Below are positions 17,227 through 36,648 of a stretch of 64,000 nt of DNA, one piece after another (the stretch's first letter is position 1; each line of letters begins with the position of its first letter). The position numbers and the translations under genes are program-made. Source of the stretch: Escherichia phage HK6; sequence record PP724615.1; one strand, 5' to 3'. Below the pieces are notes generated by a model. It was not told the origin of the DNA and searched no databases. It saw only the letters and a list, made by a program, of their open reading frames with translations.

Positions 17227-17302
17227 TGGTAGTTAGTAGTGGATTTGAACCACTGTAGTCACTCCGTATGAAGGAGGTGCATAACCACTCTGCCAACTAA
17301 CT
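17227..17302 (-). tRNA. tRNA with CAT anticodon (Met-type)
   Basis: T-arm AGTGG-TTCAAAT-CCACT, 7-bp acceptor stem, encoded CCA; anticodon read by eye. Confidence 0.65.
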
Positions 17303-17398
17303 ATTATGTTTTACTAGACTAAGTAAGTATTCTTTATACTCTTTAGACCAATTAGCTTTTTTAAACTTTCCTGGACGCATAGTCTTAATTCCTAAATT

Positions 17399-17476
17399 TG
17401 GTACTCCGGGAGGGATTTAAACCCCCCGATCTCTCGGTTATCAGCCGAGTGCTTTAGATCGCTAAGCTACCGAAGC
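17399..17476 (-). tRNA. tRNA-Ile (GAT)
   Basis: Anticodon arm CTCGG-CTGATAA-CCGAG, acceptor GCTTCGG/CCGGAGT with G-U pairs. Confidence 0.65.
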
Positions 17477-17477
17477 A

Positions 17478-17705
17478 TTAACATTTAATTGCAGAACGTT
17501 TACCATTTCTAGGCGCACCTGGAAGTCGTGCACATTCCGCCATTTTTCTTTTTATTTTGTAGATATTTTCTTGTGTTTGTTCTTCAGGCTTAATACCTGA
17601 AACACTACACCACTGATTACCATCCCATGCAGTAATGATCATAACACCATTACTCATGATCTTTTCTGTGAAAGTAATCCTCATTATAGCAACTCGTCTA
17701 AGCAA
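17478..17705 (-). CDS. Hypothetical protein (75 aa)
   Basis: ORF track. Confidence 0.4.
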   Translation of the reverse strand: MLRRVAIMRITFTEKIMSNGVMIITAWDGNQWCSVSGIKPEEQTQENIYKIKRKMAECARLPGAPRNGKRSAIKC

Positions 17706-17977
17706 GAGGTATATTTAATTTTACCATCTTTATCTACTTTGATTTCGACTTCCGCTCGTGGTACTTGACGAACTACACCATGAATCATCTTATAGCGAAT
17801 GCCTTTAGCTGGTTCATGATCTTTTGGAAATACTTGCTTAACCGTTACTACCTTGAAACCCTCACGCGGTGTTAACACTACTACTTGATCACCTTCTTTG
17901 ATTTTCCAAGAGCTAGGAAATTCATAGGTATAGCGTTGACCACCAGTTTGGAACACAACAGAAAGATAACGTTTCAT
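17684..17977 (-). CDS. Hypothetical protein (97 aa)
   Basis: Promoter module upstream at about 17975-18040. Confidence 0.5.
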   Translation of the reverse strand: MKRYLSVVFQTGGQRYTYEFPSSWKIKEGDQVVVLTPREGFKVVTVKQVFPKDHEPAKGIRYKMIHGVVRQVPRAEVEIKVDKDGKIKYTSCLDELL

Positions 17978-18226
17978 TTGGTTTCCCTCTCATTAATTTA
18001 TATAAATATTATAACAAGAAATAAGAGAGAAAGCAAATGAATTTTTAATAAAGTTTAGTCACTTCATAAACTATACTACGAGATTCTTTATTACGTTCTA
18101 TTAAATTAGCATATGCTTTTTCAGCTTCATTTTTAGTATTAAAGTCTATAACGTGGGAGGTATTAGCTCTGTTTGATTGGCTATACCAGATAACTACTAG
18201 GAGTTTAAACATACTAGTCCTTAAAT

Positions 18227-18313
18227 TGGTGCTGGGCACAGGATTCGAACCTGCAATGGGATTACTCCTCCTGATTACAAATCAGGTGCATTCAACCATT
18301 CTGCCAACCCAGC
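18227..18313 (-). tRNA. tRNA, anticodon TGT by eye, with long variable arm (87 nt)
   Basis: Anticodon arm CCTGA-TTTGTAA-TCAGG; T-arm GCAGG-TTCGAAT-CCTGT; variable-arm hairpin; isotype uncertain. Confidence 0.6.
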
Positions 18314-18478
18314 AGAACCCGTTATTTCAACGGGATTTCTTTTTCAATAACAGGGGACTTATCAGTCATGACTGTCATTGCCATTTGTTGTAGAAATTCA
18401 AAGGTGAAGGCTACACGTTCTTCACCAATCTCTACTTCTACACGTTTCTTTTGTTTGTCGATCTTAACTTTTAGGTTA

Positions 18479-18730
18479 TCAGCCATTAGAGAGTACAGTA
18501 CTGGTAGTTGGCAATACTACAGATGAAGCAACAGTGTTTAAATGCTTTCTCCAGTCTAGGTTAAATTGTTTTCGAAACTCTTCATAAGGTTCTTCTGGAT
18601 AAAAGCTAAAACCTCCTTTCTCATCATTCAGGATAACAGAGCCGTCAGTTTGTTCGTATGCTCGGTATGTTTCTCCAATAACAATAACTCGTTTATCGGT
18701 ACTTTTATTACGAAACTCAAAAACGTGCAT
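18479..18730 (-). CDS. Hypothetical protein (83 aa)
   Basis: ORF track. Confidence 0.45.
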   Translation of the reverse strand: MHVFEFRNKSTDKRVIVIGETYRAYEQTDGSVILNDEKGGFSFYPEEPYEEFRKQFNLDWRKHLNTVASSVVLPTTSTVLSNG

Positions 18731-18746
18731 AATGTTTCCTTAAAGT

Positions 18747-18822
18747 TGGAGCGGCTAGAGGGAATCGAACCCTACTCAGCGAGGCTTGGAAGGCCTGCGA
18801 CACAACCCGTGTGCTTAACCGC
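18747..18822 (-). tRNA. tRNA-Gly (TCC)
   Basis: T-loop TTCGATT; anticodon loop CTTCCAA. Confidence 0.6.
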
Positions 18823-18830
18823 TTATTATT

Positions 18831-18906
18831 TGGCTGGAGAAGGAGGAATCGAACCTACCATTAACGGAGTCAAAGGCCGTTGTGCTAACCGTTACACTAC
18901 TCTCCA
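18831..18906 (-). tRNA. tRNA-Gln (TTG)
   Basis: Acceptor TGGAGAG/TTCTCCA; anticodon loop CTTTGAC; T-loop TTCGATT. Confidence 0.65.
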
Positions 18907-18912
18907 ATTATT

Positions 18913-18988
18913 TGGCTGGGATGCCACGGATCGAACGTGGAACCTTCGGAGTCAGAGGCCGACGATCTGCCAATTGATCTACATCCCA
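18913..18988 (-). tRNA. tRNA-Gln (CTG)
   Basis: Acceptor TGGGATG/CATCCCA; D-stem GATC/GATC; anticodon loop CTCTGAC; T-arm CCACG-TTCGATC-CGTGG. Confidence 0.7.
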
Positions 18989-18997
18989 AGAATGCTA

Positions 18998-19234
18998 TTA
19001 ACTAGATGCTGTTTCTACTGGCTGAGATACAGCCGGCTGTTCTAACGTATCTGGTGCTGATACGGAGAAAAGAGCTTGTAATGCTGCAATATCACGCTCG
19101 TAAGTATCAATACGAGTAGTAAGAGTATCTACCATTTGTTTATGGTAAGCTAAGTTATTCTGAGACTCATCTCGAAGAGTTTGCAGTTCTGCAAGACGTG
19201 TTAACATAATTTCACTAATTAAAGCATTACTCAT
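18998..19234 (-). CDS. Hypothetical coiled-coil protein (78 aa)
   Basis: ORF track. Confidence 0.4.
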   Translation of the reverse strand: MSNALISEIMLTRLAELQTLRDESQNNLAYHKQMVDTLTTRIDTYERDIAALQALFSVSAPDTLEQPAVSQPVETASS

Positions 19235-19424
19235 TTGTTTCTCCTAAGTTTTCCTGTTCTTCTAAACGTTTGCCTTCATGATCTACTCGAATAACTCCGC
19301 ATCCTTCGCAAATCACAACTGCACCATAACCTTCTTTGACCTCAGCTTCTGTAATCAAACCAGAAAGATCACCAGTATCTCTGCCCCACATATCAATGGA
19401 GCATTGTTTGCAGAAATCAGCCAT
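19227..19424 (-). CDS. Small zinc-ribbon-like protein (65 aa)
   Basis: CKQCS and CEGCG Cys pairs. Confidence 0.4.
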   Translation of the reverse strand: MADFCKQCSIDMWGRDTGDLSGLITEAEVKEGYGAVVICEGCGVIRVDHEGKRLEEQENLGETNE

Positions 19425-19451
19425 ATTTTATTTCCTATTTAAGTTAATTTG

Positions 19452-19528
19452 GGGTGGCTAGTGGAATTCGAATCCACATAGGCCTGATTCACAATCAGGA
19501 TCATTAACCAATTATGATATAGCCACAA
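19452..19528 (-). tRNA. tRNA-His (GTG)
   Basis: Anticodon arm CCTGA-TTGTGAA-TCAGG; T-arm GTGGA-TTCGAAT-TCCAC; acceptor GTGGCTA/TAGCCAC. Confidence 0.75.
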
Positions 19529-19892
19529 TTGAAAACTCGCAGGGTTAGCGAAACCTTCCTCAATTAGCATGTTCTAGAATACTAATCAAGTTATCTCCTA
19601 TTGCACGCAGCTCAAGACGAGTACGAATTTTCAATTGTGGCGGCTCTCAGAAACTCTTCTACTCTAGTCTTAGCAGCTTACTCCCGAACGCATGTCGGGG
19701 AAGTCTTACCAAGAGCATCAAATAGCACCGTTACACTTTGAGCCATAGGTGTATCAAGAAGCAGAAGGACTTGAACCTTCACGAGATAGACCATTTATCT
19801 CAGCCGCTTTATGAGGTATGTTGCTGGGAGTGGATGTTCCCCATAAACCTTTTAGGCAGCCCCGTCTACCGATTCCGGCATACTTCAAGATT

Positions 19893-19986
19893 TGGAGGTA
19901 GGTAAGGGGATCGAACCCTTACACCGTATCACTACGATCAACCGATTTCAAGTCGGAGTCCAGCGCCAGCCGTTGGATTGACCTAC
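19893..19986 (-). tRNA. tRNA-Ser (TGA), long variable arm
   Basis: T-arm AAGGG-TTCGATC-CCCTT; acceptor GGTAGGT/ACCTACC; anticodon loop CTTGAAA. Confidence 0.65.
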
Positions 19987-19998
19987 CGTATAAATTGT

Positions 19999-20093
19999 TT
20001 GGCGGAAAAGATGGGAGTTGAACCCATAAGGCGGTATTGCTACCACTCAACCGATTTCCAATCGGGTTTAGTCACCAGTCTATTTGCTTTTCC
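19999..20093 (-). tRNA. tRNA-Ser (GGA), long variable arm
   Basis: T-arm ATGGG-TTCAACT-CCCAT; acceptor GGAAAAG/CTTTTCC; anticodon loop TTGGAAA; 5' end overlaps the stop of the HNH gene by about 14 nt. Confidence 0.6.
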
Positions 20094-20664
20094 GTTGTTC
20101 TGTTAATACTTTTGGGCTTAATCCGGTTAGTTTAGTATATCGTCTACGTAAAGTGGACTCTGATACTTCTAGATCTTTAGCTGCCTTAACCCACCCCATT
20201 AATAAAACCTTTTCAGTTATGTCTTCTAAGGACAATTCTGGTTTTATTAACTTTCCTGTAGGTTTTGGCTTACAATTTGTACATGTTACTGATCTCTGAA
20301 GCATTAGATTTCCACATAAGGGGCAAGGTACTCTACTATCAGACCATCCATTATCTTTATTAGTTTTCTTCTGATGTTCTATTTTTGACAAAACTTGAAG
20401 ATTATCTTTAGATAGATTCAGCCTATCTCTATCCTTGTGATCTACTTCTAATTCAGGGTCAAATAGATTATATAAGTCCCCAAATACATGAGAAATAATT
20501 CGGTGTATAAGTACCGAAGTTTGCTTACCATTTATCTGTAATTTTACAGCAGGGTATCCATCAACTATATATCTTGATAAAATTTTATTAGTAAATGTAG
20601 ATAACACATCCCCTGTTTCATTTACTAAATACCCTGGTGCATCTTTTATTGGTACAAACTGCAT
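20080..20664 (-). CDS. HNH homing endonuclease (194 aa)
   Basis: N-terminal IKDAPGYLVNETGDV (NUMOD4-like), HNH core VDHKDRDRLNLSKDNLQVLSKIEHQKK, C-terminal HTH-like tail. Confidence 0.75.
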   Translation of the reverse strand: MQFVPIKDAPGYLVNETGDVLSTFTNKILSRYIVDGYPAVKLQINGKQTSVLIHRIISHVFGDLYNLFDPELEVDHKDRDRLNLSKDNLQVLSKIEHQKKTNKDNGWSDSRVPCPLCGNLMLQRSVTCTNCKPKPTGKLIKPELSLEDITEKVLLMGWVKAAKDLEVSESTLRRRYTKLTGLSPKVLTEQRKSK

Positions 20665-20680
20665 ACATTACCCTATAAGT

Positions 20681-20765
20681 TGGTGGGGCTAGGGAGACTC
20701 GAACTCCCACGCATTTAAGCTACGGAATCTAAGGCCGTATTGTCTACCAGTTCCAGCATAGCCCC
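20681..20765 (-). tRNA. tRNA-Leu (TAG), long variable arm
   Basis: T-arm GGGAG-TTCGAGT-CTCCC; acceptor GGGGCTA/TAGCCCC; anticodon loop CTTAGAT. Confidence 0.65.
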
Positions 20766-20770
20766 AAATT

Positions 20771-20844
20771 TGGTGGAGAAAGAGGGAGTTGAACCCTCGT
20801 CTTCTGCGTGCAAAGCAGATGTTCTACCATTAAACTATATCCCC
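20771..20844 (-). tRNA. tRNA-Ala (TGC)
   Basis: T-arm GAGGG-TTCAACT-CCCTC; anticodon arm TCTGC-TTTGCAC-GCAGA. Confidence 0.65.
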
Positions 20845-21129
20845 AAATTCTTTAGTTTACTAAGGCTATTAGCTCGGCGTAACTACAGCACCTTCGCTTC
20901 GAGCGGAAGGAACCGCGTCATCTCGCAAACCCGATACACTATTCAGTTGCCGCTGAATCTAGTGGACTAATCTAGAACTTCTCCCGAATCGTAGGGATCG
21001 TGCTTTTTGGCAGCCAGTCCTAGGTCGAGCTAATACCTTAGTGAACTATGATGAGGATTTCTCCTCATCAATTTATATTGATATTATAACAAGAAATTAA
21101 GCATCAAGCAACTGCATTTTTCTTGAAAT

Positions 21130-21209
21130 TGGTAGATCGCCTGGGACTCGAACCCAGAACCTTCCGATTAAAAGTCGGATGCTACTAAACCTATTGAGCT
21201 AGCGATCTA
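21130..21209 (-). tRNA. tRNA-Lys (TTT)
   Basis: Acceptor AGATCGC/GCGATCT; anticodon arm TCCGA-CTTTTAA-TCGGA; T-arm CTGGG-TTCGAGT-CCCAG. Confidence 0.7.
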
Positions 21210-21397
21210 TTAGTAACCATTATACACTTCTTTAATAGAGTGGACTTTTAAGTAAGGGTGATTAGTACTAAACTCTACCATTACTTCATCCCAATTTTTA
21301 CCGTAATGAGCAAGTAAGGATTTTGATGTATTCTTACCTGAACGTTTGTCACTTACTACTAATCGAAATACTTTCATTTCGAAATCCCCTATTAAAA

Positions 21398-21474
21398 TGG
21401 AAGCGGGTGCAGGAATCGAACCTACCTCTTTCTAGCTTATGAGACTAGTGATCTCTACCAGAGATCTAACCCGC
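21398..21474 (-). tRNA. tRNA with CAT anticodon (Met/fMet/Ile2-type)
   Basis: Anticodon arm CTAGT-CTCATAA-GCTAG; T-loop TTCGATT; acceptor pairing imperfect, ends approximate. Confidence 0.5.
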
Positions 21475-21481
21475 AATTGTT

Positions 21482-21557
21482 TGGTCAGTGCGGCAGGACT
21501 CGAACCTGCGACCCGAAGCATCCAAGGCTCCCACGCTACCAACTGCGCTACGCACTG
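21482..21557 (-). tRNA. tRNA-Pro (TGG)
   Basis: Acceptor CAGTGCG/CGCACTG; anticodon loop CTTGGAT; T-arm GCAGG-TTCGAGT-CCTGC. Confidence 0.75.
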
Positions 21558-21566
21558 TTAATTCTT

Positions 21567-21764
21567 TTATTGTGGAGGAATATTAATAATTCGTCCATCT
21601 ACACAATAAACGGTACTAGGAATCGTACTATATATGTAGAAATTCTTTATATTACTCTCTCCGCCACAGAAATTTTTAGCAAATTCATACTCTTTATTAA
21701 TGGTTGAGTCAAATTTAAAACAACCAGTAAGTAGGAATACAGATAGTAATAAAACTTTCTTCAT
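21567..21764 (-). CDS. Small lipoprotein (65 aa)
   Basis: Signal peptide with lipobox LLTGC; promoter module upstream. Confidence 0.5.
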   Translation of the reverse strand: MKKVLLLSVFLLTGCFKFDSTINKEYEFAKNFCGGESNIKNFYIYSTIPSTVYCVDGRIINIPPQ

Positions 21765-22217
21765 TTAGCTTTCCTTCTCTTCACTTTATAAGATATATTA
21801 TACAGAGAATTAAGCAGAATAGCAAATGAATTTTTAATAAATTTACTTATTGTGTAGGCCACCTGGAGGCTACCAACCCCACGGCTGACAAAGAAGTTTG
21901 CGAGACCTCTCTTAAATGCCAGAATAGACCCGCCGATCTATCGGAACCTACATAATAAGTAAACTTTATAGTGTCATTCTAGACAGGACTCGAACCTGTT
22001 ATCACTTGTGCGGACTTACGAGAACCATTCTTTCACTCGAATCGAACGAGCTTCTGCCCTCGCCAAGCTGGTTTCCCCATCAACCACGCTAGAATGTTTG
22101 ATTATTTTCAGTGCAAGAGTCCGAGTCTTGGACACGACCGCTTCGCAAGTACATAGGCTGCTTATCATGAGTCAGCACTTCCGAATTGCTAGCTCCGTGT
22201 TCTGCACTGAAATTTTG

Positions 22218-22565
22218 TTAATTTAACAGTAAAGTACGATCTACTTCACCATTAATTGTTCGGCATTCTTCTGGGATCTCTGGTGTAGCCTTATATTCCC
22301 ACCATTCAGAACCGTCGTATTCACCACGTTCTAACCAAGTTCCATCAGTAAACCACACGTTACCATAAAGCAATTGCCCACCATAACCAGAATCATATTT
22401 AAAGTCTAGATTATTTAGAAAATCTTCAATATCTTTTTCTGTATAACCTACGGGCAATACCCAAACTTCTTTGTCTCCATAATAACCGAATTCTATCTTA
22501 ATACACTTAACTTCAGAATTAGTATTCTTTAGGGCAAGTAACAACTCTTCTTTAGCATTAATCAT
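22218..22565 (-). CDS. Hypothetical protein (115 aa)
   Basis: ORF track. Confidence 0.5.
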   Translation of the reverse strand: MINAKEELLLALKNTNSEVKCIKIEFGYYGDKEVWVLPVGYTEKDIEDFLNNLDFKYDSGYGGQLLYGNVWFTDGTWLERGEYDGSEWWEYKATPEIPEECRTINGEVDRTLLLN

Positions 22566-22591
22566 AGCATATTTCTCGTGCTAGTTTAGTT

Positions 22592-22667
22592 TGGTACACC
22601 CACTAGGACTTGAACCTAGAACCCCCCGCTTAAGAGGCGGTAGCTCTAACCATTGAGCTATGGATGT
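22592..22667 (-). tRNA. tRNA-Lys (CTT) by eye
   Basis: Acceptor ACATCCA/TGGGTGT; anticodon loop CTCTTAA; T-arm CTAGG-TTCAAGT-CCTAG. Confidence 0.55.
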
Positions 22668-22843
22668 ATTAAATTACTTTTTCCAGTTCATCAGCTATGG
22701 CTTTGATTTTTTCAAAGTTTACATCACTTATAATGATACCTTCCAGTGACAGAGATATTCTAGCATTTTTTATAGCAGATTCTTTTATCTGCTCTATCTC
22801 TTCTGGAGTAAACTCCCTACGTTCCATAGCTAACCTACCTTAT

Positions 22844-22920
22844 TTGGCGCGACCGATGGGATTCGAACCCACATTCTCTCCCGTGACAGGGGAGTACCAT
22901 TACCAAACCAGCCCCGGTCG
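22844..22920 (-). tRNA. tRNA-Asp (GTC)
   Basis: Acceptor GCGACCG/CGGTCGC; anticodon arm CTCCC-CTGTCAC-GGGAG; T-loop TTCGAAT. Confidence 0.7.
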
Positions 22921-22930
22921 CATAATTCAT

Positions 22931-23116
22931 TTACTCAGCTTTGAGTTTTTCAATAGCTGCATTAAGTTCCTTAAGAAACTCTTTTCGTACATTAAGACGA
23001 TTAAGACTTACTAGTATATCATGTTTAAGTTCTTCGATGTATTTCTTCTCAACTTCAATATTGTTGATAGTGCTATCACGATGAACTTCTAGCTGTGCAA
23101 TTACATTCTTGGACAT
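22931..23116 (-). CDS. Hypothetical coiled-coil protein (61 aa)
   Basis: ORF track. Confidence 0.35.
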   Translation of the reverse strand: MSKNVIAQLEVHRDSTINNIEVEKKYIEELKHDILVSLNRLNVRKEFLKELNAAIEKLKAE

Positions 23117-23230
23117 GCTTGTTTCCTCAGTTATTAATGAAAATGGTATCTGTGGCTGAATTCGATGTCAGCAATGATAGCTGGTTGGCTACCGGTTTAC
23201 TTAACTCTACACAGAATTTGGCGGGCCGTG

Positions 23231-23313
23231 TAGGATTCGAACCTACGTTGTCTTTCGACACGGATTAACAATCCGCCGCCAAACCGCTTGGCTAACGACC
23301 CTAAATTTATATT
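23231..23313 (-). tRNA. tRNA, anticodon GTT (Asn-type) with unusually long variable arm (83 nt)
   Basis: Acceptor GGGTCGT/ACGGCCC; D-stem GCCA/TGGC; anticodon arm GCGGA-TTGTTAA-TCCGT; 13-nt variable arm; T-arm GTAGG-TTCGAAT-CCTAC. Confidence 0.6.
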
Positions 23314-23453
23314 GCTGACTAGGATTTTCACCTAGACGGAGTTAGCACCGTAGCGTGTAGCGGCATACCTCTCCAAACCGTGCCTCATCTTTCAATTACG
23401 GAGACAGTGTTCCTACGCGTGCCTGAATTGTTTTAACAATTCTTTCAGCAAAT

Positions 23454-23529
23454 TGGACGACCGCATGAGATTTGAACTCACATAAAAAGGATTTGCAATC
23501 CTTCGCCTAAGCCATTCAGCCAACGGTCG
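23454..23529 (-). tRNA. tRNA-Cys (GCA)
   Basis: Anticodon arm AAGGA-TTGCAAA-TCCTT; T-loop TTCAAAT; acceptor CGACCGT/GCGGTCG. Confidence 0.65.
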
Positions 23530-23598
23530 ATTTATCTTATTCTATCATGTTGCTTCTCCAGTTCAATTTATGTAATTATTATACAGAACTTTTGGAAA

Positions 23599-23886
23599 CT
23601 AAGCAACTACATTTTTTAAAAATTTGATGCCTTTCTTTTTCTTCTTATATTTCCACGTTAATGGATTCTGTCGATTATGAACGCTTGAGATCTTTGTCTC
23701 GTCAAAGTTCTTCAATATCATGTAATCACAAGATAATTGTTCTAGTGGAATGTGATCACCATCAAAAGCATATACATAAGGCTGTTGACTAGCACGATAA
23801 TGATAGACTTTGTTAATTCTACGTTTCAGCGACTTATCCGCGCAGTAAATAAAGAAGTTTTCAGGATGCATCAGCAGCTCCTTCAA
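23599..23886 (-). CDS. Hypothetical protein (95 aa)
   Basis: Promoter module upstream at about 23540-23620. Confidence 0.5.
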   Translation of the reverse strand: MKELLMHPENFFIYCADKSLKRRINKVYHYRASQQPYVYAFDGDHIPLEQLSCDYMILKNFDETKISSVHNRQNPLTWKYKKKKKGIKFLKNVVA

Positions 23887-23888
23887 AT

Positions 23889-23963
23889 TGGTGCACCCTG
23901 TTCGTATCGAACGAACCTCTCAAGCTCTTCAGGCAAGCGCTAATCCATCTCAGCTAAAGGTGC
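23889..23963 (-). tRNA. tRNA-like, possible Phe (GAA), weak anticodon stem
   Basis: Good acceptor (GCACCTT/AGGGTGC) and T-arm (GTTCG-TTCGATA-CGAAC) but the anticodon stem has two mismatches; may be degenerate. Confidence 0.4.
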
Positions 23964-23969
23964 AAATTT

Positions 23970-24040
23970 TGGCAGGGGTAAAGGTATTCGAAACCTTTTC
24001 ATGGGTTTTGGAGGCCCATTTGCAACCTATGCGTACCCCA
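23970..24040 (-). tRNA. tRNA-Trp (CCA) candidate, short D region
   Basis: T-arm AAGGT-TTCGAAT-ACCTT; anticodon loop CTCCAAA; only about 71 nt, 5' end approximate. Confidence 0.45.
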
Positions 24041-24049
24041 ATTATTAAT

Positions 24050-24124
24050 TGGCACACCCAACGAGGATCGAACTCGTGTTCCCACTGTGAAAGAGTAGTG
24101 TCCTAACCGCTAGACGATAGGTGC
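24050..24124 (-). tRNA. tRNA-Glu (TTC)
   Basis: D-stem GTCT/GGAC; anticodon arm CTACT-CTTTCAC-AGTGG; T-arm ACGAG-TTCGATC-CTCGT. Confidence 0.7.
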
Positions 24125-24131
24125 ATTAAAT

Positions 24132-24219
24132 TGGTGGGCGTTAATGGAGTCGAACCACTCGAGTCGCAATGACCAGGGATTTACAATCCCCTCCGCTACC
24201 ACTTACGGAATAAACGCCC
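24132..24219 (-). tRNA. tRNA-Tyr (GTA), long variable arm
   Basis: Anticodon arm GGGGA-TTGTAAA-TCCCT; D-arm TTCC..GG.AG resembles bacterial tRNA-Tyr; acceptor GGGCGTT/AACGCCC. Confidence 0.7.
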
Positions 24220-24417
24220 AAATTCTCTTTAAGGTAGCCAGTGTTACCGCACTGACTAGGAGTTATCGGTAAAATGGTGGGGGCCATCTGCCAAAAATTT
24301 ACTCTGCTAAAGTAAGAACTACCTTAAAAAGAACTTTCCAAATTAGATAAATATTATACCAAGTTTTATAGTATTGGGCAAGTCAAATTTTAAAGAACTT
24401 GCCCAATGCTGTATTAG

Positions 24418-24693
24418 TTAGTCGAACTTAGGAGTGACAGTTAAGGAGAATGGAAGTTCGAAAACTTCTTCCCCCTCATTACTAACGGTAACTACACGAC
24501 CTTTAAGTTCAGACATTGAAATATCAATATCAGCTTTTGCATCCGGAGCCATGCCAGCTTCAACACATTTAGCTTTAATTTCCGGCAGAAGTTCTACATC
24601 GTAGAAATAAAGCCATTCAATCTCACCTTCCCAGCCTTCCCAGGATTTACAGATTGCACTTTCAATACCAGCTGCTATAACACGATTTTGCAT
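24418..24693 (-). CDS. Hypothetical protein (91 aa)
   Basis: Promoter module upstream at about 24700-24770. Confidence 0.5.
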   Translation of the reverse strand: MQNRVIAAGIESAICKSWEGWEGEIEWLYFYDVELLPEIKAKCVEAGMAPDAKADIDISMSELKGRVVTVSNEGEEVFELPFSLTVTPKFD

Positions 24694-24783
24694 TCATTAA
24701 CTCCTTCATCAATTTATATAACTATTATATCAGAAATTTAAAGCAAAAGGCAAGTACATTTTTAAAAATTCTGTTTGGAGGAG

Positions 24784-24990
24784 CTAAACTCCAGATTCTT
24801 CAGCCAAGTCTAGACTAATAAGAGATATAGCCATAATTGCCGCTCCATGTTCTTTTTCTCCAGTTTCTTTAGCTAGAGTTATAATATCAAGAAATTGCTT
24901 ATGAAAATCTGCAACCTCTTGAGTTAAACCCGCCTCAGCAATCATACCTTTAAGCATGAAACGTTGTGCGGTAATTTCAGGATTAGCCAT
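24784..24990 (-). CDS. Hypothetical protein (68 aa)
   Basis: ORF track. Confidence 0.4.
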   Translation of the reverse strand: MANPEITAQRFMLKGMIAEAGLTQEVADFHKQFLDIITLAKETGEKEHGAAIMAISLISLDLAEESGV

Positions 24991-25164
24991 GTTGTTTCTC
25001 CAGTTTCATCTTTAATAGTCTACAAATAAAATCAATGTCTTCATCCGTGCCTAGATCTCTATCTTCAAGAGTTGCCTTGAAGTTTTTAGTCAACTCCATG
25101 AGAATAACTTCTCTAGAACGACGTGTTGGCGGAGGTGGATGTCTATACATCTTATTTCCTTAAT

Positions 25165-25241
25165 TTGGTAGGGGTGGTGGGATTCGAACCCACAAAACCT
25201 GAATTTTAAGTCCAGTACCTATGCCAATTCGATTACACCCC
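25165..25241 (-). tRNA. tRNA with TAA anticodon (Leu-type) but short variable arm
   Basis: Acceptor GGGGGTG/CACCCCT; anticodon arm CTGGA-CTTAAAA-TTCAG; T-arm GTGGG-TTCGAAT-CCCAC; 77 nt. Confidence 0.55.
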
Positions 25242-25343
25242 CATGTAATCAGTTTATTAGTTGATACATATTATAGCCTAGTGAAAATCCTACTACTAGT
25301 CCCACAAACCAACCAATATAGTAATCTTTTAGTTTCACAGGTA

Positions 25344-25529
25344 TTATCCTCGTTCAATATCTAGGGAAATACCACAGTTAGGATTAATACCTGTACCATT
25401 GCAATTTGGGCAAACCCAGATATTGCAAAAAGTATCTCCTGCTTCTGCATCAGAACTTTCACCAATTCCCCTACACTCAGGGCAGGCACATTCTTCTAGC
25501 TCTTGCTTGAGTTCTTGAAACTTGGACAT
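25344..25529 (-). CDS. Small zinc-ribbon protein (61 aa)
   Basis: CPECRG...CPNCNG Cys pairs. Confidence 0.45.
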   Translation of the reverse strand: MSKFQELKQELEECACPECRGIGESSDAEAGDTFCNIWVCPNCNGTGINPNCGISLDIERG

Positions 25530-25538
25530 ATAGTCTCC

Positions 25539-25727
25539 TTAGTCAATTACTTTTGAGGCTTCTAAAGCATTGACGTAGTAAACATCTTCTACATTATACA
25601 TATAGTCTACTACTTTGTCCATAGCATGGAGTTCGGATGTAGCCTTTACTAGTCTGTACCCTTGTTTAAACTCGTCCGAACGTTCTCTATCTTGTGCAAA
25701 TTTAACAGAAACTATGAATAATTCCAT
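25539..25727 (-). CDS. Hypothetical protein (62 aa)
   Basis: ORF track. Confidence 0.4.
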   Translation of the reverse strand: MELFIVSVKFAQDRERSDEFKQGYRLVKATSELHAMDKVVDYMYNVEDVYYVNALEASKVID

Positions 25728-25745
25728 TAATTGTCCTTATTTAAT

Positions 25746-25823
25746 TTGGTGGCTCCCCGAGGATTCGAACCTACGTACCTACCGGTTATGAGCCGGGTGC
25801 TCATACCATATGAGCTTGAGAAC
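25746..25823 (-). tRNA. tRNA with CAT anticodon (Met/fMet/Ile2-type)
   Basis: Acceptor GGTTCTC/GGGAGCC; D-arm GCTCA-TATGGTA-TGAGC; anticodon loop CTCATAA; T-loop TTCGAAT. Confidence 0.6.
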
Positions 25824-25829
25824 CAAAAT

Positions 25830-25918
25830 CTGGCGGAAGAAGTGGGAATCGAACCCACAAGGCTATATTTCAAACCGACAGATTAGCAATCTGCTGCAAT
25901 ACCGTTATGCTATTCTTC
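25830..25918 (-). tRNA. tRNA-Ser (GCT), long variable arm
   Basis: Acceptor GGAAGAA/TTCTTCC; anticodon arm GCAGA-TTGCTAA-TCTGT; T-arm GTGGG-TTCGATT-CCCAC. Confidence 0.7.
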
Positions 25919-25940
25919 CGAATTTATAAGATATATTATA

Positions 25941-26510
25941 TTAGAAATTTAGCTTCATAGCAAGAAAATTTTTCAAGTTTTCGGTAGACATCTCATCCAC
26001 ATCTACAGGAGAAACAAATCCATTTAATTTTCTAGCAAATTTTTCACCAGCAGGATCGTTGTCCCCGACAGCTACTAATTTAAAAGGTAATAATTTCAAT
26101 TGCTTTAATAACGCTTTTCCTGGAGAAGAACCCAACATTGCCAGGGCTGGGTAACCAGCATTATGTAACGCAACTGCCTTAAATACAGATTCAGCGATCA
26201 ATACTACTTTTTCATCTCCATTGAGAGTTTCTAGTCCCCATACACACTGGGTAGTAGAATAAGTAAAGTATTTAGCTTCAAAGGGGCACTTACCATGACC
26301 TTTTGGAGCAGAAGGATTGTAAGTTTGATAGCCCCTCAACATCCCAGAGAAGTCATACAACGGGACAGTTAGCCATCCTTCCGGACTTAACCAGCAATGA
26401 TATTTATCTGTATCAAATCCTCTAGATAAGAGGTGCTGTGTTAGCTCATCAACATTCATATTTGGTTCCTCTCTCAAATTTATAGATATATTATACAGAG
26501 AATTTAGCAT
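25941..26510 (-). CDS. Toprim-domain protein (189 aa)
   Basis: VAVGDNDPAGEKFARKL resembles the Toprim DxD acidic motif; no zinc-binding primase domain. Confidence 0.5.
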   Translation of the reverse strand: MLNSLYNISINLREEPNMNVDELTQHLLSRGFDTDKYHCWLSPEGWLTVPLYDFSGMLRGYQTYNPSAPKGHGKCPFEAKYFTYSTTQCVWGLETLNGDEKVVLIAESVFKAVALHNAGYPALAMLGSSPGKALLKQLKLLPFKLVAVGDNDPAGEKFARKLNGFVSPVDVDEMSTENLKNFLAMKLNF

Positions 26511-26634
26511 TCAAGCAATCAAATTTTTTAACTTTTTAGAGGAGAATCATAGGGCACTTAAGGGTAGCAGATAAGTGGTGAGGACCAAAATTTGTGACCC
26601 CACTAAAAATCCGGGGGCAATTTTTAAAGATCCC

Positions 26635-26663
26635 TTGACATTTTCGCTGGGGTAGTGTAAAGT
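26635..26663 (+). promoter_or_regulatory. sigma70-like promoter (TTGACA, 17 bp, TAAAGT) for the plus-strand operon
   Basis: Perfect -35 hexamer, weaker -10; shares the 13-mer TTGACATTTTCGC with the promoter at 55633. Confidence 0.5.
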
Positions 26664-26725
26664 ATATGTTATGGATGAGTGATCAAAGAGACACACATTT
26701 TCTATATACTAGGAGGTGTCAAAAA

Positions 26726-27718
26726 ATGACAGAAGAAGTAGCTAAGAGTCCTGAGACCGTCGCTAGCGTTGCAGCAGAACTGCACCGTCACGAGGAATCA
26801 GATAAGAAAAAGTGGGAGAAGGTCAGAGCCTACGAAGAAAAACATCGTGAACACGATGAAGATGATAAAGAAGATGACGATGATGAGCATTGTCATAAAT
26901 ATGGAAAACATAAAATGCAAGAACCAGTAAACGTATTTACTAGTGGCTTCCCTGGCCTACTGGGTGGTTACCCAGCAAACGCAGGTGCTTTCGGTGGTGA
27001 AGGTATGGGACTATTCGGAGCTATCCTAATCGGTGCTCTATTAACAGGCGGATTCGGTGGATTCGGTGGATTCGGTGGACGTGGTATAGTTGGTGATGGT
27101 ACCGCAGTTGATGCAGTACTTCAGAACCAAGATACCGCTAGTATTCTAGCAGCTATTAACACTACTCGTACAGAAGCTAATCAGGGTACTGGAGCTGTTT
27201 TAAGCGCAGTTAACAATGGTTTTAGCCAGACATCCCAAAACCAGAGCCGTGATACTCAGTCTGTACTAACTACGATCTATGGTACGGGTGCTAATCTGTC
27301 TAATCAAATCTGCCAGGAAACTCGCAACGTTATTCAGGGTCAGTTCGATCTTTCTCGCCAGATTGATCAATCTTTCGCAGCTAACCAGATAGCTCGTGCA
27401 CAAGATAAGTTTGATTCTGCACAGATCGCTTTCCAGCAGACTTTACAAACTAATAACCAGTTTGCCGCTGTTCAGGCTCAGATGTGTGCTAACCAGAACT
27501 CTCTGGAACGTCAGATTGCTGAATGTTGCTGTGAACTTCAGACTGCGATCGCTGGTGTAACTACTGCGCGTATCCAGGATGAGTTAGATGCGTGTCGCCT
27601 ACGTGAAGCAATCGCTGCGGGTAGCGGTGCTAACGGTCAGGTAATTAATCAAATCGCTTTAAGTCTTGGTACTATCACTCAGACTCTGGCTGGTCTGCAG
27701 GCTAAACTGCCGGCTTAA
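26726..27718 (+). CDS. Low-complexity membrane protein, acidic N-terminus, GGFGGFGGFGG segment, Q/T/N-rich C-terminus (330 aa)
   Basis: Start at the ATG 8 nt after AGGAGG (track ORF begins 26666); hydrophobic glycine-zipper GMGLFGAILIGALLTGGFGGFGGFGGRG; no family recognised. Confidence 0.65.
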   Translation: MTEEVAKSPETVASVAAELHRHEESDKKKWEKVRAYEEKHREHDEDDKEDDDDEHCHKYGKHKMQEPVNVFTSGFPGLLGGYPANAGAFGGEGMGLFGAILIGALLTGGFGGFGGFGGRGIVGDGTAVDAVLQNQDTASILAAINTTRTEANQGTGAVLSAVNNGFSQTSQNQSRDTQSVLTTIYGTGANLSNQICQETRNVIQGQFDLSRQIDQSFAANQIARAQDKFDSAQIAFQQTLQTNNQFAAVQAQMCANQNSLERQIAECCCELQTAIAGVTTARIQDELDACRLREAIAAGSGANGQVINQIALSLGTITQTLAGLQAKLPA

Positions 27719-27739
27719 TATTAAGGGGAGGAGCCCATT

Positions 27740-28156
27740 ATGAGTAAATATGGTTTTGTAAATAACGGACTTAATCAAAGTATGGGCTCCCAGCAGCCCA
27801 TTCCGGGTCTGGATAACCCCTACTTACAACAGTTGCAACAGCGTTTAGCAGAAGCGCAACAGATGCAGCAACAACTCCAGCAAAACCCTGGAAGTGTAAG
27901 TCCTATGCAAATGATGCAGCAAATGAGCGGGCAGTCGCAAATGCCTCAACAAATGCAGCAACAGATTCCGCAGCAGCAAGTTCAGCAACAAACCCAACAA
28001 CCGCAGGTTTCTGCGGAAGGACAGGCAGTACTAGCCCTTTTCGAAGACTTCGCAAAGACAGAGGATGGAAAACAGCTTGTATCACTTATGGGTAAGTTTA
28101 ATAGCTTCTGCCAAAGCCAAGTTGCAAAAGCTCAAAATGGTGGTAATAACTCCTAA
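27740..28156 (+). CDS. Gln-rich low-complexity protein (138 aa)
   Basis: RBS GGGGAGGAG; about 40 percent Q in the central region. Confidence 0.6.
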   Translation: MSKYGFVNNGLNQSMGSQQPIPGLDNPYLQQLQQRLAEAQQMQQQLQQNPGSVSPMQMMQQMSGQSQMPQQMQQQIPQQQVQQQTQQPQVSAEGQAVLALFEDFAKTEDGKQLVSLMGKFNSFCQSQVAKAQNGGNNS

Positions 28157-28165
28157 GGAGGAATT

Positions 28166-28360
28166 ATGTGTTGCAGAAAATCTGTTTCGTGCTGCCCAAT
28201 GCCTGTAGCACGTTGTTGCTCTCCAGCAATGTTTACGCAAATACCGGCGTTCAATCCGTTTGCCTTTAAGCCTACTCTTATCCTGCCCCCTAGAGTAGAT
28301 TTTCAGTCAAGATTGGCCTCCCGTATGGGTGGTTGCTGTAACAAGAGTATATGGTTCTAA
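28166..28360 (+). CDS. Small Cys-doublet protein (64 aa, four CC pairs)
   Basis: RBS AAGGAGG; MCCRKSVSCCPMPVARCC...GGCCNKSIWF. Confidence 0.55.
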   Translation: MCCRKSVSCCPMPVARCCSPAMFTQIPAFNPFAFKPTLILPPRVDFQSRLASRMGGCCNKSIWF

Positions 28361-28375
28361 GGAACCAAACAATAA

Positions 28376-28406
28376 AGCCCCTAAGTCTTTCGACTAGGGG
28401 CTTTTC
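28376..28406 (+). terminator. Rho-independent terminator ending the plus-strand operon
   Basis: GCCCCTAG..CTAGGGGC stem followed by TTTTCTTTT. Confidence 0.75.
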
Positions 28407-28426
28407 TTTTATCTTAAATACAGAAA

Positions 28427-28455
28427 AGCCCGCGCTTTCGGAGAAAACGCGGGCT
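28427..28455 (-). terminator. Rho-independent terminator downstream of SPFH gene
   Basis: AGCCCGCG..CGCGGGCT stem followed on the minus strand by TTTTCTGTATTT. Confidence 0.7.
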
Positions 28456-28479
28456 TGGTTCGAAGATTACGTGTAACTA

Positions 28480-29427
28480 TTACTTGTTACGCATATCCAT
28501 AATCATTTGACCATCATAGCCAGTGCCAACTACAGTCTGAGGTACACCACCTTGATACTTCTGAGCACGAATCATTTCAACTTCCAGTTGCTTCCAGCGA
28601 ATCATCTCAGGAGTAATGGTACGTTGCAATGCGGCGTTAGCTTCAGCTTCTTTCTTAGCTGCGTACAGTTTAGCATCTGCGTCACGTTCATTAGCAATAG
28701 CTTGGTTGTTGCGAGCCTCACGATCTGCTTCTGCTTGTTTAACTTTTTGCTGTGCTTCCTGTTCAACGCGAGCGAGTTCAGCTTTCGCAGCATTAACTTG
28801 TTCTTCACGAACTTTGGTATTCTGTACCTGTTCCATGATTACCGGTGGCAAAGTAATATCCTGAAGAAACACCTGCTTAACTGTGTAACCATATGGGCGT
28901 GCATACTCTTCAACTTCCTGTTGAATTGCAGTTTGCAATTGAGCCTGAATTTTAGCATCAAATAAATCTTGTGCTTTAGGTACAGACTTACCAAACTCAC
29001 GAATAGTAGACAGTAATTTTTCAGTTACATATTTGTCTAACGCTTGATCCTGAGTACCTGCGTTAATACGGTTAATCGGTGCCTTAGAACCATCAAACTG
29101 CAACATAACAGTCAAGTCAACAGTGGATTTAAACTTGTCCTGGCTAGGAACCTGAAGTTTATCTAATTTTACAGCAATATCTTTTGTACTAAAAGTATCA
29201 AAAGATGCAAACGGGTTTACAAGATGGAAACCAGGCAATACTGGATTAGGGTCTACTTTACCCAGGAATGTTTGGGTTTTAACCGTACCATCAGAAACAA
29301 TAGTATATGAATTAAAAGCTAGGATTAAACCTGCTAAACCAACTACAGCACCAATACCCCAACGTTTAATAGTACGAATTACTTTCTGCTCAGAAGTCAG
29401 TTCTTTCATATTTTTAGTATTAAACAT
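28480..29427 (-). CDS. SPFH/band-7 (stomatin/prohibitin-like) membrane protein (315 aa)
   Basis: N-terminal TM, SPFH-like core, long Ala/Gln/Glu-rich coiled coil. Confidence 0.7.
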   Translation of the reverse strand: MFNTKNMKELTSEQKVIRTIKRWGIGAVVGLAGLILAFNSYTIVSDGTVKTQTFLGKVDPNPVLPGFHLVNPFASFDTFSTKDIAVKLDKLQVPSQDKFKSTVDLTVMLQFDGSKAPINRINAGTQDQALDKYVTEKLLSTIREFGKSVPKAQDLFDAKIQAQLQTAIQQEVEEYARPYGYTVKQVFLQDITLPPVIMEQVQNTKVREEQVNAAKAELARVEQEAQQKVKQAEADREARNNQAIANERDADAKLYAAKKEAEANAALQRTITPEMIRWKQLEVEMIRAQKYQGGVPQTVVGTGYDGQMIMDMRNK

Positions 29428-29461
29428 ATATTTCCTTTGTTTTAGTTACAGTTAATAAAAT

Positions 29462-29536
29462 TGGCCGAGGTGACAGGATTCGAACCTGCATAAAGGAATT
29501 TAGAAGACTCCTGCCTCTCCCTTAGACTACACCCCG
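29462..29536 (-). tRNA. tRNA-Arg (TCT)
   Basis: Acceptor CGGGGTG/CACCTCG; anticodon arm GGAGT-CTTCTAA-ATTCC; T-arm GCAGG-TTCGAAT-CCTGT. Confidence 0.65.
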
Positions 29537-33203: not shown

Positions 33204-33905
33204 TCAAATTTTCATTTTTTCGATCATAGCTGCAACACAATAGCTCTCAACTAAGGCATCGAATGCTGGATCATGTTTAACCGGATAGATCCCATAACGA
33301 ATAGTGTCCATTTTCTCCATTTTAGCGGTTGCCCAGCTAATACCTTCAGCCTCTAGCTCTTTGTAACTATATCCAGCTTGCATCCAGAGATTACGAAGAG
33401 ATCGAACATTGCCCAAATTCCAGAATTTCCACGGAACTACCTCTTCATTGGTTCCAGCATGGAAAGTGTTTGCAGAGTAGATAGTCATATCAAACTCTGG
33501 GCCATTGCCATAATACAAAGCATTATCGCCTAGAGCCAACTCCATAATATTTTGAGCCATAGAGTAGGCAGCATAGTTAGAGCCGAGTTTATTAGTACAA
33601 TGATGTTTACCGTTTTGGAATGCAATCAGCTTTGGATTACGCTCGTTCATAGCTTGCATAATGTGGATAGCAGACGGACTGTCTTTAGCTTGATCCATCC
33701 AGAATGCTAGAGTAGATGCTGTAACTTTGGCACCAGAATTAAGCTGATCCTGCACATCCAAAGTAACAAATACTAGATCAGGGTCTTTATCAATTCCATG
33801 CATAGCCACAAAAGCGAATGAAGGCATTGCGATATGAGTAGTACCACAATCTCCCGGAGTTCCCAGAGATTCAATATCTAGCATACCAAATGGTTTTACT
33901 TTCAT
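33204..33905 (-). CDS. DEDD-type 3'-5' exonuclease (233 aa)
   Basis: Exo I-like MLDIESLG near the N-terminus and H..D..AFDA near the C-terminus. Confidence 0.6.
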   Translation of the reverse strand: MKVKPFGMLDIESLGTPGDCGTTHIAMPSFAFVAMHGIDKDPDLVFVTLDVQDQLNSGAKVTASTLAFWMDQAKDSPSAIHIMQAMNERNPKLIAFQNGKHHCTNKLGSNYAAYSMAQNIMELALGDNALYYGNGPEFDMTIYSANTFHAGTNEEVVPWKFWNLGNVRSLRNLWMQAGYSYKELEAEGISWATAKMEKMDTIRYGIYPVKHDPAFDALVESYCVAAMIEKMKI

Positions 33906-34491: not shown

Positions 34492-35007
34492 TTACTTCGC
34501 TTTACGCTTGCGAGCTGGTTTAGCAGATTTACGGGCAGAATCACCCGTGAACTTAATGCCTACACCGTAACACAGAGCGCGAACGTTATCTTTACTATAC
34601 TCTACGCCAAAGATATTTGGCTTAACAGAACCAAACTGTCCACGAGCATCACGTAGTACGTCTGCCGTTGGTTTACGCTTCTGGTTAACTGCTTTCTCAT
34701 AGTCTTTCATAGCCATGCCATTACGAGAGAACAATTCAGCCCCAGCGTTGAAGCTCAGGGAAACTGGGACAGATTTGTGGCCGTAATTTTCTACATACAT
34801 AACCATTTTGTAGGATTTACGGGTGGCATTTTTAGCTTTAGGCTTCTGACGAATCGGAGCCGGATTATTCAGTGCTTGTGCAGCCTGAGCATCGGTAGGA
34901 TGCTTACGCAGGTGGCGTTCCAGACGAGCTTTGCGATTAGCCTCGGTCTGCGGGAAAGTTTTAACTGCCGGAGCTGCTTGAGTTTTTGCGTTTTTCTGCT
35001 TAGCCAT
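34492..35007 (-). CDS. Basic protein with Lys/Arg-rich termini (171 aa)
   Basis: Basic N- and C-termini, optimal-looking codons. Confidence 0.55.
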   Translation of the reverse strand: MAKQKNAKTQAAPAVKTFPQTEANRKARLERHLRKHPTDAQAAQALNNPAPIRQKPKAKNATRKSYKMVMYVENYGHKSVPVSLSFNAGAELFSRNGMAMKDYEKAVNQKRKPTADVLRDARGQFGSVKPNIFGVEYSKDNVRALCYGVGIKFTGDSARKSAKPARKRKAK

Positions 35008-35082
35008 TATTTGTTTTCCTTTTTGTTTATCAATTTATGAAGTATATTATACGAGAATTTGAAGCGTTTAGCAAATGAATTT

Positions 35083-35532
35083 TTAATTTATTAACTGTAA
35101 GCTTCTTTTAATTTCAGACCTTACCTGCATCAAAAGAACTCCTAAAGTATTATCCCCGATGCCTCGGCAAACACCCCAATATGTATCTCCCCAGGTATTT
35201 CCTTCGATCAAAGTTGCATTTTTTGTTGCTAACAGTTTGTCCCTCAAATCAGGGATTGCAAACTTTAACCGTAAAAGCTCTAGCATTACATCATCTTTTA
35301 CCTTATCCCAGTCAGAGCGCAGAGTTAATTTACGTCCTCTACGTTTGGCAACACCTGCATTTAGGGAGCGCAGTACATGAGCTACATCATCTTTTTGGTC
35401 GGATTTCATAGCCTGAAAAGCATGTTCTACAGTATCAGCATGCCATATTTCATTCAGATATTCAAAAGTAATTGGTGATAAATAAAAGTTTGATAAGAAA
35501 CTATAAGCACCTTTAAATTCAGTAATCTTCAT
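35083..35532 (-). CDS. NADAR / YbiA-like (DUF1768) protein (149 aa)
   Basis: Motifs FLSNFY, HAFQAMK, GNTWGDTYWGV typical of the YbiA/NADAR family. Confidence 0.7.
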   Translation of the reverse strand: MKITEFKGAYSFLSNFYLSPITFEYLNEIWHADTVEHAFQAMKSDQKDDVAHVLRSLNAGVAKRRGRKLTLRSDWDKVKDDVMLELLRLKFAIPDLRDKLLATKNATLIEGNTWGDTYWGVCRGIGDNTLGVLLMQVRSEIKRSLQLIN

Positions 35533-35813
35533 TTTTTACGCCCCGCATCTTTAGCCTCTTCGGCTGTATAGATATACTGATAAGCCCCTTTGGAGTATGC
35601 TGGAGCAGTACACATTTTCTTACGCTCAATCTCTTCTTGAGCTTTTCTTTCGCGTTCAGCTAATTCTTCGTCCAGATAAACTAAACGTTGTTCTGGAGGG
35701 GGTGGAAGACGTGTTTCTGGCTCACCAATATTAGCCTTTCTTATTTGACGAGGTGATTGTGCGCGTTTTCTCAATGGTTTAAATCCTAATGAATTTGAGT
35801 TATAAATCCGCAT
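35529..35813 (-). CDS. Hypothetical basic protein (94 aa)
   Basis: ORF track. Confidence 0.45.
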   Translation of the reverse strand: MRIYNSNSLGFKPLRKRAQSPRQIRKANIGEPETRLPPPPEQRLVYLDEELAERERKAQEEIERKKMCTAPAYSKGAYQYIYTAEEAKDAGRKK

Positions 35814-35890
35814 AAAGCCCTCCTCACTTTCAATACGAATATTATACTAAATTAGAGGGCTTTAAGCAAGAGAATTTTTCAATTTATTTA

Positions 35891-36379
35891 TCACATCTCA
35901 GCCATTTCAGCTTCAGTAATAACTGTATTACATAAGGCATCTACAGCTTCATTACCACTAATACCAGAATGTCCTTTAACCTTAATAAAGGTAGGGTTAG
36001 TATTATGAAAGTTGATATACTGCTGTGTTAATTTAAATGCTTCCTGCCAAAGTTCTAGATTAAGAGGAACTTCACCATCTGCTTTCTTCCAGCCTTTCCT
36101 TTGCCAAGAAAACATCCAACTTTCCATGCCATTTTTGCAATAAGCAGAGTCAGTATAGATAGCAATTGGTCTATTATCTTTTTTAACAGACCAACGTAGA
36201 GCTTCTACGATAGCTGTGAGTTCCATCTCATTATTTGTAGTTTTAGGATTATAACCAGATTTAGAACCTAAACGATCGTAGTTATCATCATAGACAATAA
36301 AACCCCAAGCACCTGGACCTGGGTTAGACTTACAAGCACCATCTGTGTAAATGTGGAAAACCGACATTATACCTCCCAA
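35891..36379 (-). CDS. rnhA: Ribonuclease HI (162 aa)
   Basis: TDGACKSNPGPGAWG, TNNEMEL and KGHSG motifs align with E. coli RNase HI. Confidence 0.85.
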   Translation of the reverse strand: MGGIMSVFHIYTDGACKSNPGPGAWGFIVYDDNYDRLGSKSGYNPKTTNNEMELTAIVEALRWSVKKDNRPIAIYTDSAYCKNGMESWMFSWQRKGWKKADGEVPLNLELWQEAFKLTQQYINFHNTNPTFIKVKGHSGISGNEAVDALCNTVITEAEMAEM

Positions 36380-36648
36380 CTAATTTTAAGACCCATGTCT
36401 ACAAAGGCGGCTTCTCGGTAGTATTGTGAGAGATGATACCCCTTATCCGATAAGGTTTTTAGTACCGATTTAGCTGCTCCTGGCATTTCTCTAGGATTAT
36501 ATAGCCACCTAGCGTAAGGATTATCTCGAATAATTACTTCTGTATTTCCAGACTTAGCAGCTTCTACAATCTTTTCTTCTATAAACTTTAGAAATGCAGG
36601 TACTTCTGTTAACCCTGCAAGTTCTTGAGCTTCTTTGGCTGAAATCAT
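36367..36648 (-). CDS. Hypothetical protein (93 aa)
   Basis: ORF track. Confidence 0.5.
   Translation of the reverse strand: MISAKEAQELAGLTEVPAFLKFIEEKIVEAAKSGNTEVIIRDNPYARWLYNPREMPGAAKSVLKTLSDKGYHLSQYYREAAFVDMGLKISWEV

Follow-up and report, generated by a model that had tools for sequence, protein, structure and literature searches.

The question raised by this locus is whether a small gene in the early region of a T5-like phage encodes an enzyme that removes ADP-ribose from DNA and thereby counters a host toxin, and which toxins such an enzyme would counter. The window, that is, the whole stretch of 64,000 nucleotides from Escherichia phage HK6 (PP724615.1) that was analysed, carries an ATG-started open reading frame of 149 amino acids at 35083..35532 on the minus strand, exactly where the initial annotation had placed a NADAR/YbiA-like gene. 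The motifs on which that annotation was based are present in the translation, with FLSNFY at residues 12-17, HAFQAMK at 37-43 and GNTWGDTYWGV at 111-121, and such a set is far beyond chance level. The search with the NADAR profile that had been suggested as a check gave a match to Pfam NADAR (PF08719) with an E-value of 6.9e-22 and 78.9 bits, above the gathering cut-off of 35.1, spanning residues 9-142 of the protein and positions 9-163 of the 163-position profile. The product is clearly a NADAR-domain protein, and the gene is described here as adfN-type from the open reading frame list, the Pfam match and its identity to bas32_0066, as discussed below.

A sequence search of the PDB with the 149-residue protein placed E. 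coli YbiA (2B3W, E=3.5e-15) before 8BAU (E=6.7e-7), the NADAR of Phytophthora nicotianae solved with ADP-ribose. A 40-sequence profile of the family kept the same order, scoring 130 bits for YbiA and 73 bits for the P. nicotianae NADAR, and no DarT1-associated (DarG1-type) NADAR chain occurred among its PDB matches at E<=0.01. PHROGs assigns the protein to phrog_1017, which is labelled 'unknown function'. Membership of two NCBIfam families was considered and rejected. The protein scores 66.5 bits with TIGR02464 ('riboflavin biosynthesis intermediates N-glycosidase'), under the curated cut-off of 73.7, and 44.9 bits with NF053876 (DS-32 NADAR anti-phage protein), for which the curated cut-off is 240, the likeness to this DS-32 defence family being at the domain level only.

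The AlphaFold2 model of the protein, computed on the 40-sequence alignment, has a mean pLDDT of 97.7 and a pTM of 0.91, and displays the YbiA-like alpha-helical core fold. When the model was compared with the PDB by Foldseek, 2B3W (E=1.6e-9, TMq 0.82) and 8BAU (E=2e-6, TMq 0.76) were recovered, and no other PDB entry gave a significant match. Before the NADAR core, which is reached within ~10 residues of the N-terminus, the model shows no more than a two-residue strand and a helix at residues 8-13.

Mutagenesis of the E. coli C7 NADAR has revealed that E88, K95 and D171 are needed for guanine de-ADP-ribosylation, their counterparts in the P. nicotianae enzyme being E43, K50 and D130 (Schuller et al., Mol Cell 2023; PMC11543638). 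Profile alignment to 8BAU and YbiA maps E36, K43 and D116 of the HK6 protein onto these P. nicotianae residues. A pairwise phmmer alignment, which paired P. nicotianae E43/K50 with D33/F39, was discarded as a local misalignment; the placement at E36/K43 given by the 40-sequence profile agrees with the alignment to YbiA. Along with W119, the residues E36, K43 and D116 are invariant in the 40-sequence family alignment, in which the homologues are 46-59% identical, and the predicted catalytic Glu/Lys/Asp set of the protein is therefore intact. A further lysine of the E. coli C7 NADAR, K115 (K75 in P. nicotianae), is reported to be dispensable in vitro and required against DarT1 in cells (PMC11543638). 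The profile alignment brings K63 of the HK6 protein to this position, which is kept as lysine in at least 90% of the same 40 homologues and is occupied by alanine in YbiA. Profile search, predicted fold and catalytic residues all uphold the assignment of the protein to the NADAR/YbiA-like family.

The family assignment by itself does not allow activity in vivo to be deduced, because the protein is nearer to YbiA than to any DarT1-associated NADAR in both sequence and fold, and YbiA fails to rescue cells from DarT1. The claim of in vivo activity is made here because the protein is nearly identical to one that has been tested. It shares 148 of its 149 residues with bas32_0066 (QXV80247.1) of phage IrisVonRoten (BASEL phage Bas32), the sole difference being K104 in HK6 and E104 in bas32_0066 (K104E). 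The substitution is conservative and lies on the surface, at a position which varies across the family in the 40-sequence alignment, and it is presumably neutral. The copy in phage HildyBeyeler, which is taken to be Bas33, is 99.3% identical to the HK6 protein, and tblastn located a single NADAR place in the HildyBeyeler record. Johannesman et al. (Nat Commun 2025; PMC11825919) describe AdfN^Bas32 as one identical NADAR of Bas32 and Bas33. We take bas32_0066 to be this published protein, since our searches of Bas32/Bas33 gave no other NADAR match. At the nucleotide level, the HK6 gene and the Bas32 allele differ at 11 positions, of which 10 are synonymous and one is non-synonymous, a ratio that indicates purifying selection on the gene.

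According to the text of Johannesman et al., AdfN^Bas32 neutralises the toxicity of DarT1 in uninfected E. coli, and its ectopic expression brings RB69, T5 and Bas25 back to full titre on DarTG1 hosts, while the thymidine-specific DarTG2 is not affected by it (PMC11825919). The same source reports T5 to be strongly restricted by DarTG1 (PMC11825919). The support for AdfN^Bas32 in that text comes from ectopic expression, and no deletion in a T5-like phage was found there (PMC11825919); a search of the later literature on AdfN in T5-like phages turned up only this paper and a transposon study of T4 (HIDEN-SEQ). The counter-defence role proposed in the initial annotation has thus been published as an experimental result for a protein with a single residue changed (PMC11825919). 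The proposal that DarT-type toxins in general would be countered was too broad: it stands for the guanine-specific DarT1 of DarTG1, by the published results on AdfN^Bas32, and fails for the thymidine-modifying DarT2 of DarTG2. The protein encoded at 35083..35532 is already known, being a further copy of a counter-defence protein that has been published and characterised by experiment.

The genomic setting of the gene is that of a T5-like phage: over stretches of 5 kb and 24 kb around it, the identity to Escherichia phage slur09 and to further Tequintavirus/Epseptimavirus phages is 97-98%. The genes of RNase H, thymidylate synthase, DHFR and NrdB/NrdA are found close by, upstream of it and on its own strand. 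The description of the locus as an early operon near nucleic-acid enzymes is fair, because in T5-like phages the genes of nucleic-acid metabolism, and the tRNAs as well, are counted among the early genes (PMC10644984). The tRNA genes of the window number 22, all on the minus strand and clustered at 17227-29536 in the T5-type arrangement typical of such phages. Between the genes of RNase H and thymidylate synthase, there is also a frame of 93 amino acids (36367-36648, minus strand) without a Pfam match; at the equivalent place, no CDS is annotated in Bas32. On the other side of the NADAR gene, a 233-residue frame at 33204-33905 (minus strand) matches the Pfam Rv2179c-like 3'-5' exoribonuclease with 34.3 bits, above the cut-off; it is labelled 'metallopeptidase' in many T5-like records, and the public annotations are thus inconsistent.

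The gene immediately upstream, ORF94 (35529..35813, minus strand, 94 amino acids), is a T5p088 homologue, 91% identical to T5p088 and without a Pfam match. Its stop codon overlaps the ATG of the NADAR gene (ATGA; overlap sequence AAAAATGAAG), and the two genes are therefore probably co-transcribed and translationally coupled. The last ~12 amino acids of ORF94 differ from those of T5p088 (…YQYIYTAEEAKDAGRKK as compared to …YQYVSDEEQAKMVGR in T5p088), and it appears that the NADAR cassette has remodelled the 3' end of ORF94. A promoter-like site (TTGCTT-17 nt-TATAAT) occurs upstream of ORF94 at 35841..35869 on the minus strand, at the place between rnhA and T5p088 where T5 annotates a 'putative promoter'. 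It was found by reading the sequence together with the T5 annotation; with matches at only 3 of 6 positions in its -35 hexamer, it escaped the consensus promoter scan. This site is likely to be the promoter of the ORF94-NADAR pair, and we infer that the NADAR gene is expressed early from it.

A comparison with T5, which lacks the gene, elucidates how the cassette is placed. In T5, the annotated promoter P-H207 comes straight after T5p088 (92 amino acids) and precedes T5p087. The equivalent of P-H207 in the window (TTGCTA-17 nt-TATAAT, 35046..35074, minus strand; 10/12 in the consensus scan) lies directly 3' of the NADAR stop codon, where the insertion ends on its 3' side, at the place homologous to that which T5 annotates as 'promoter P-H 207', and drives the next gene, that of a DUF7022 protein (34492..35007). 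The window and T5 are identical over 105 nucleotides from 34980 to 35084, a position inside the NADAR stop codon, beyond which they diverge, and homology is back inside the T5p088 homologue. As the identity to T5 breaks in the NADAR stop codon and resumes in the T5p088 homologue, the gene is a clean insertion of ~450 bp between that homologue and the P-H207 equivalent. No ART/DarT domain was detected in the open reading frames neighbouring the NADAR gene, which is therefore an orphan. That T5, which is sensitive to DarTG1, has no NADAR gene at this locus is consistent with a role of the gene in counter-defence against DarTG1.

The NADAR stretch is fully covered by ~92 of the 441 T5-like records, and in 95 phage records a protein at least 95% identical is encoded; roughly one fifth of the sequenced T5-like phages carry the gene, and the cassette is a presence/absence polymorphism among phages that are otherwise collinear. 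Two records in which T5-like DNA has also been deposited, 'Listeria phage LM 4-14-1' and 'Campylobacter phage C13', are probably mislabelled. More distant homologues, 35-60% identical, occur in 469 phage records, including those of Streptomyces, Vibrio, Stenotrophomonas and Bacillus phages, and further ones in many metagenomic contigs. In Salmonella phage vB_SenS_UTK0009 (Epseptimavirus; locus L003, 2489-2938), a NADAR gene whose product is only 60% identical lies between rnhA and the T5p088 homologue, in a slot that corresponds to the gap between 35813 and 35891 of the window, the next intergenic slot to that which holds the insertion in HK6. The low identity of this allele and its position one slot over suggest that a NADAR gene was acquired a second time, independently, at what would be a small hot spot. 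The precise cassette with its presence/absence polymorphism and the 60% allele in the adjoining slot of an Epseptimavirus go beyond the text of Johannesman et al. as consulted.

Among species-representative bacterial and archaeal genomes, no close cellular donor was found, the best cellular match being 54% identical. The matches belong to scattered groups, namely Bryobacterales, Planctomycetota, Clostridia, Pseudomonadales and one Pacearchaeota MAG; archaea account for 1 of the best 80 cellular loci, and the published placement is 'archaeal-like'. At least four homologues (47-50% identical) are located on one Bryobacterales MAG chromosome (OZ241991.1; loci L005, L006, L011 and L022), and at least four in the same range of identity on one Azotimanducaceae MAG chromosome (OZ241908.1; loci L023, L032, L053 and L082). 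These multi-copy NADARs may be cargo of mobile elements or defence islands.

The protein was compared with the known classes of NADAR, and the closest counterpart is AdfN^Bas32, which, besides the 148 identical residues, shares with it the same locus and flanking genes in Tequintavirus and the status of an orphan without an adjoining toxin gene; the two differ in residue 104 and in the 10 synonymous nucleotide changes. Like AdfN^T4 (T4 gp30.3), which is also an orphan phage NADAR that reverses guanine ADP-ribosylation by DarT1, it has no DarG1 N-terminal extension. However, AdfN^T4 belongs to a separate clade, BLAST and PSI-BLAST started from AdfN^T4 fail to reach the Bas32 protein, and the T4-type NADARs have His in place of the conserved Glu and need the T-even context for full activity, as stated in the text of PMC11825919. 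The HK6 protein keeps the Glu (E36), and the nearly identical AdfN^Bas32 works without any phage factor. Membership of the gp30.3 cluster was therefore rejected on the retention of E36 and on the placement of AdfN^Bas32 outside the T4 cluster in that paper, the T4 type being set apart here by the published description of gp30.3.

The DarG1 proteins, such as those of E. coli C7 and G. lovleyi, have the same E/K/D catalytic residues and carry out the same reaction, and K115 of the C7 enzyme corresponds to K63. DarG1 possesses an N-terminal beta1-beta2-alpha1 extension before the YbiA-like core, which is thought to form a DNA-binding groove (PMC11543638), whereas the HK6 protein has neither this extension nor an adjacent darT1; its gene is flanked by those of the T5p088 homologue and the DUF7022 protein, with no ART, and membership of DarG1 was rejected on these grounds. 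Among solved structures, E. coli YbiA (2B3W) is the nearest (TMq 0.82, 37% identity), and it is likewise a minimal NADAR core without the extension. Whereas the HK6 gene sits in the phage early region, ybiA belongs to the chromosome, as a housekeeping gene of the LexA-controlled dinG-ybiB operon. YbiA removes G-ADPr in vitro, yet it gives cells no protection from DarT1. The HK6 protein differs from it in K63, where YbiA has Ala, and in a TIGR02464 score that stays under the cut-off.

Taken together with the published work, it is very probable that the gene encodes a counter-defence enzyme of the orphan-antitoxin type, of the AdfN class and the Bas32 type, which reverses the ADP-ribosylation of guanine in phage DNA by DarT1, and none of the results speaks against it. 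The HK6 sequence contributes to this reading a complete NADAR, folded as expected in the model and with its predicted active site intact, that is one residue away from AdfN^Bas32 and is encoded on an accessory insertion with no adjoining toxin gene; the literature contributes the neutralisation of DarT1, the rescue of phages and the specificity for guanine over thymidine, all of them for AdfN^Bas32. On infection of a DarTG1 host, the DarT1 toxin would ADP-ribosylate the N2 of guanine in the phage DNA and block its replication. The early-expressed NADAR would then hydrolyse the N-glycosidic linkage of ADP-ribose to guanine, and with the unmodified DNA regained, the phage would be able to replicate. 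Hydrolysis of guanine-N2-ADP-ribose by the HK6 protein is expected from the in vivo neutralisation of DarT1 by the 99%-identical AdfN^Bas32, and the gene presumably protects its own phage in the native context.

Three other explanations of the gene were weighed against this one. It may be asked whether the protein is a housekeeping N-glycosidase of the YbiA type, destroying reactive intermediates of the riboflavin pathway as the product of an auxiliary metabolic gene unrelated to defence. E. coli YbiA is indeed its top PDB match by sequence and by fold, it scores 66.5 bits with TIGR02464, and several homologues bear the name 'ribA/ribD-fused uncharacterized protein' in their sources. That score, however, stays below the curated 73.7, no riboflavin gene or ribA/ribD fusion lies near the NADAR gene, and the patchy occurrence in collinear T5-like phages fits an accessory anti-defence gene. 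The nearly identical AdfN^Bas32, moreover, neutralises DarT1 in vivo and YbiA does not, so that a purely metabolic role has a very small chance of being correct. A decayed or inactive remnant without current function is scarcely credible at all. The absence of the gene from ~80% of T5-like genomes, which could be taken in its favour and from which it follows that the gene is dispensable for basic growth, is outweighed by a full-length frame with all catalytic residues in place, by the predominance of synonymous changes (10 to 1) relative to the Bas32 allele, and by the retention of the protein at an identity of at least 95% in 95 phage records.

The third explanation concerns the natural target, which may mainly be another ADP-ribosylation, i.e. 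guanosine-ADPr in RNA, cytidine-ADPr or the product of some other ART defence or toxin, the reversal of DarT1 modification being only one activity of the enzyme and possibly a secondary one. Every NADAR class tested removes G-ADPr from RNA as well; cytidine-ADPr is removed by the NADAR-type and YbiA-type enzymes and not by DarG1s or the T4 NADAR, and the HK6 protein is nearer to the YbiA type. Johannesman et al. also raise the possibility that certain AdfNs act against further ART defences (PMC11825919). No such defence acting on T5-like phages has been shown, though, and the complete recovery of three phages on DarTG1 hosts suffices as a function. We therefore consider it improbable that the main target lies elsewhere, and this explanation would in any case extend the reversal of DarT1 modification rather than replace it. 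A related and tentative suggestion, which we regard as possible but doubtful, is that the T5-type AdfN has a wider substrate range (cytidine-ADPr, and RNA as well as DNA), since it is closer to the YbiA-type than to the DarG1-type and T4-type NADARs; it might thus guard T5-like phages against ART defences other than DarTG1, and Lys63 might be what lets a NADAR without the extension act on DarT1-modified DNA in vivo.

With the protein identified as a copy of AdfN^Bas32, little biology is gained beyond Johannesman et al. 2025, and a genuine anti-defence gene could be recognised by a reader working from the sequence alone. The practical gain is the correct annotation of ~95 T5-like phage genomes, because the public records still carry other labels for the gene; those given to it in GenBank phage records are 'swarming motility protein YbiA', 'GTP cyclohydrolase II', 'N-glycosidase' and 'hypothetical protein'. 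For the phages themselves, the counter-defence reading predicts that phage HK6, unlike T5, should plate on DarTG1 hosts, a prediction which bears on the choice of T5-like phages for therapy or biocontrol.
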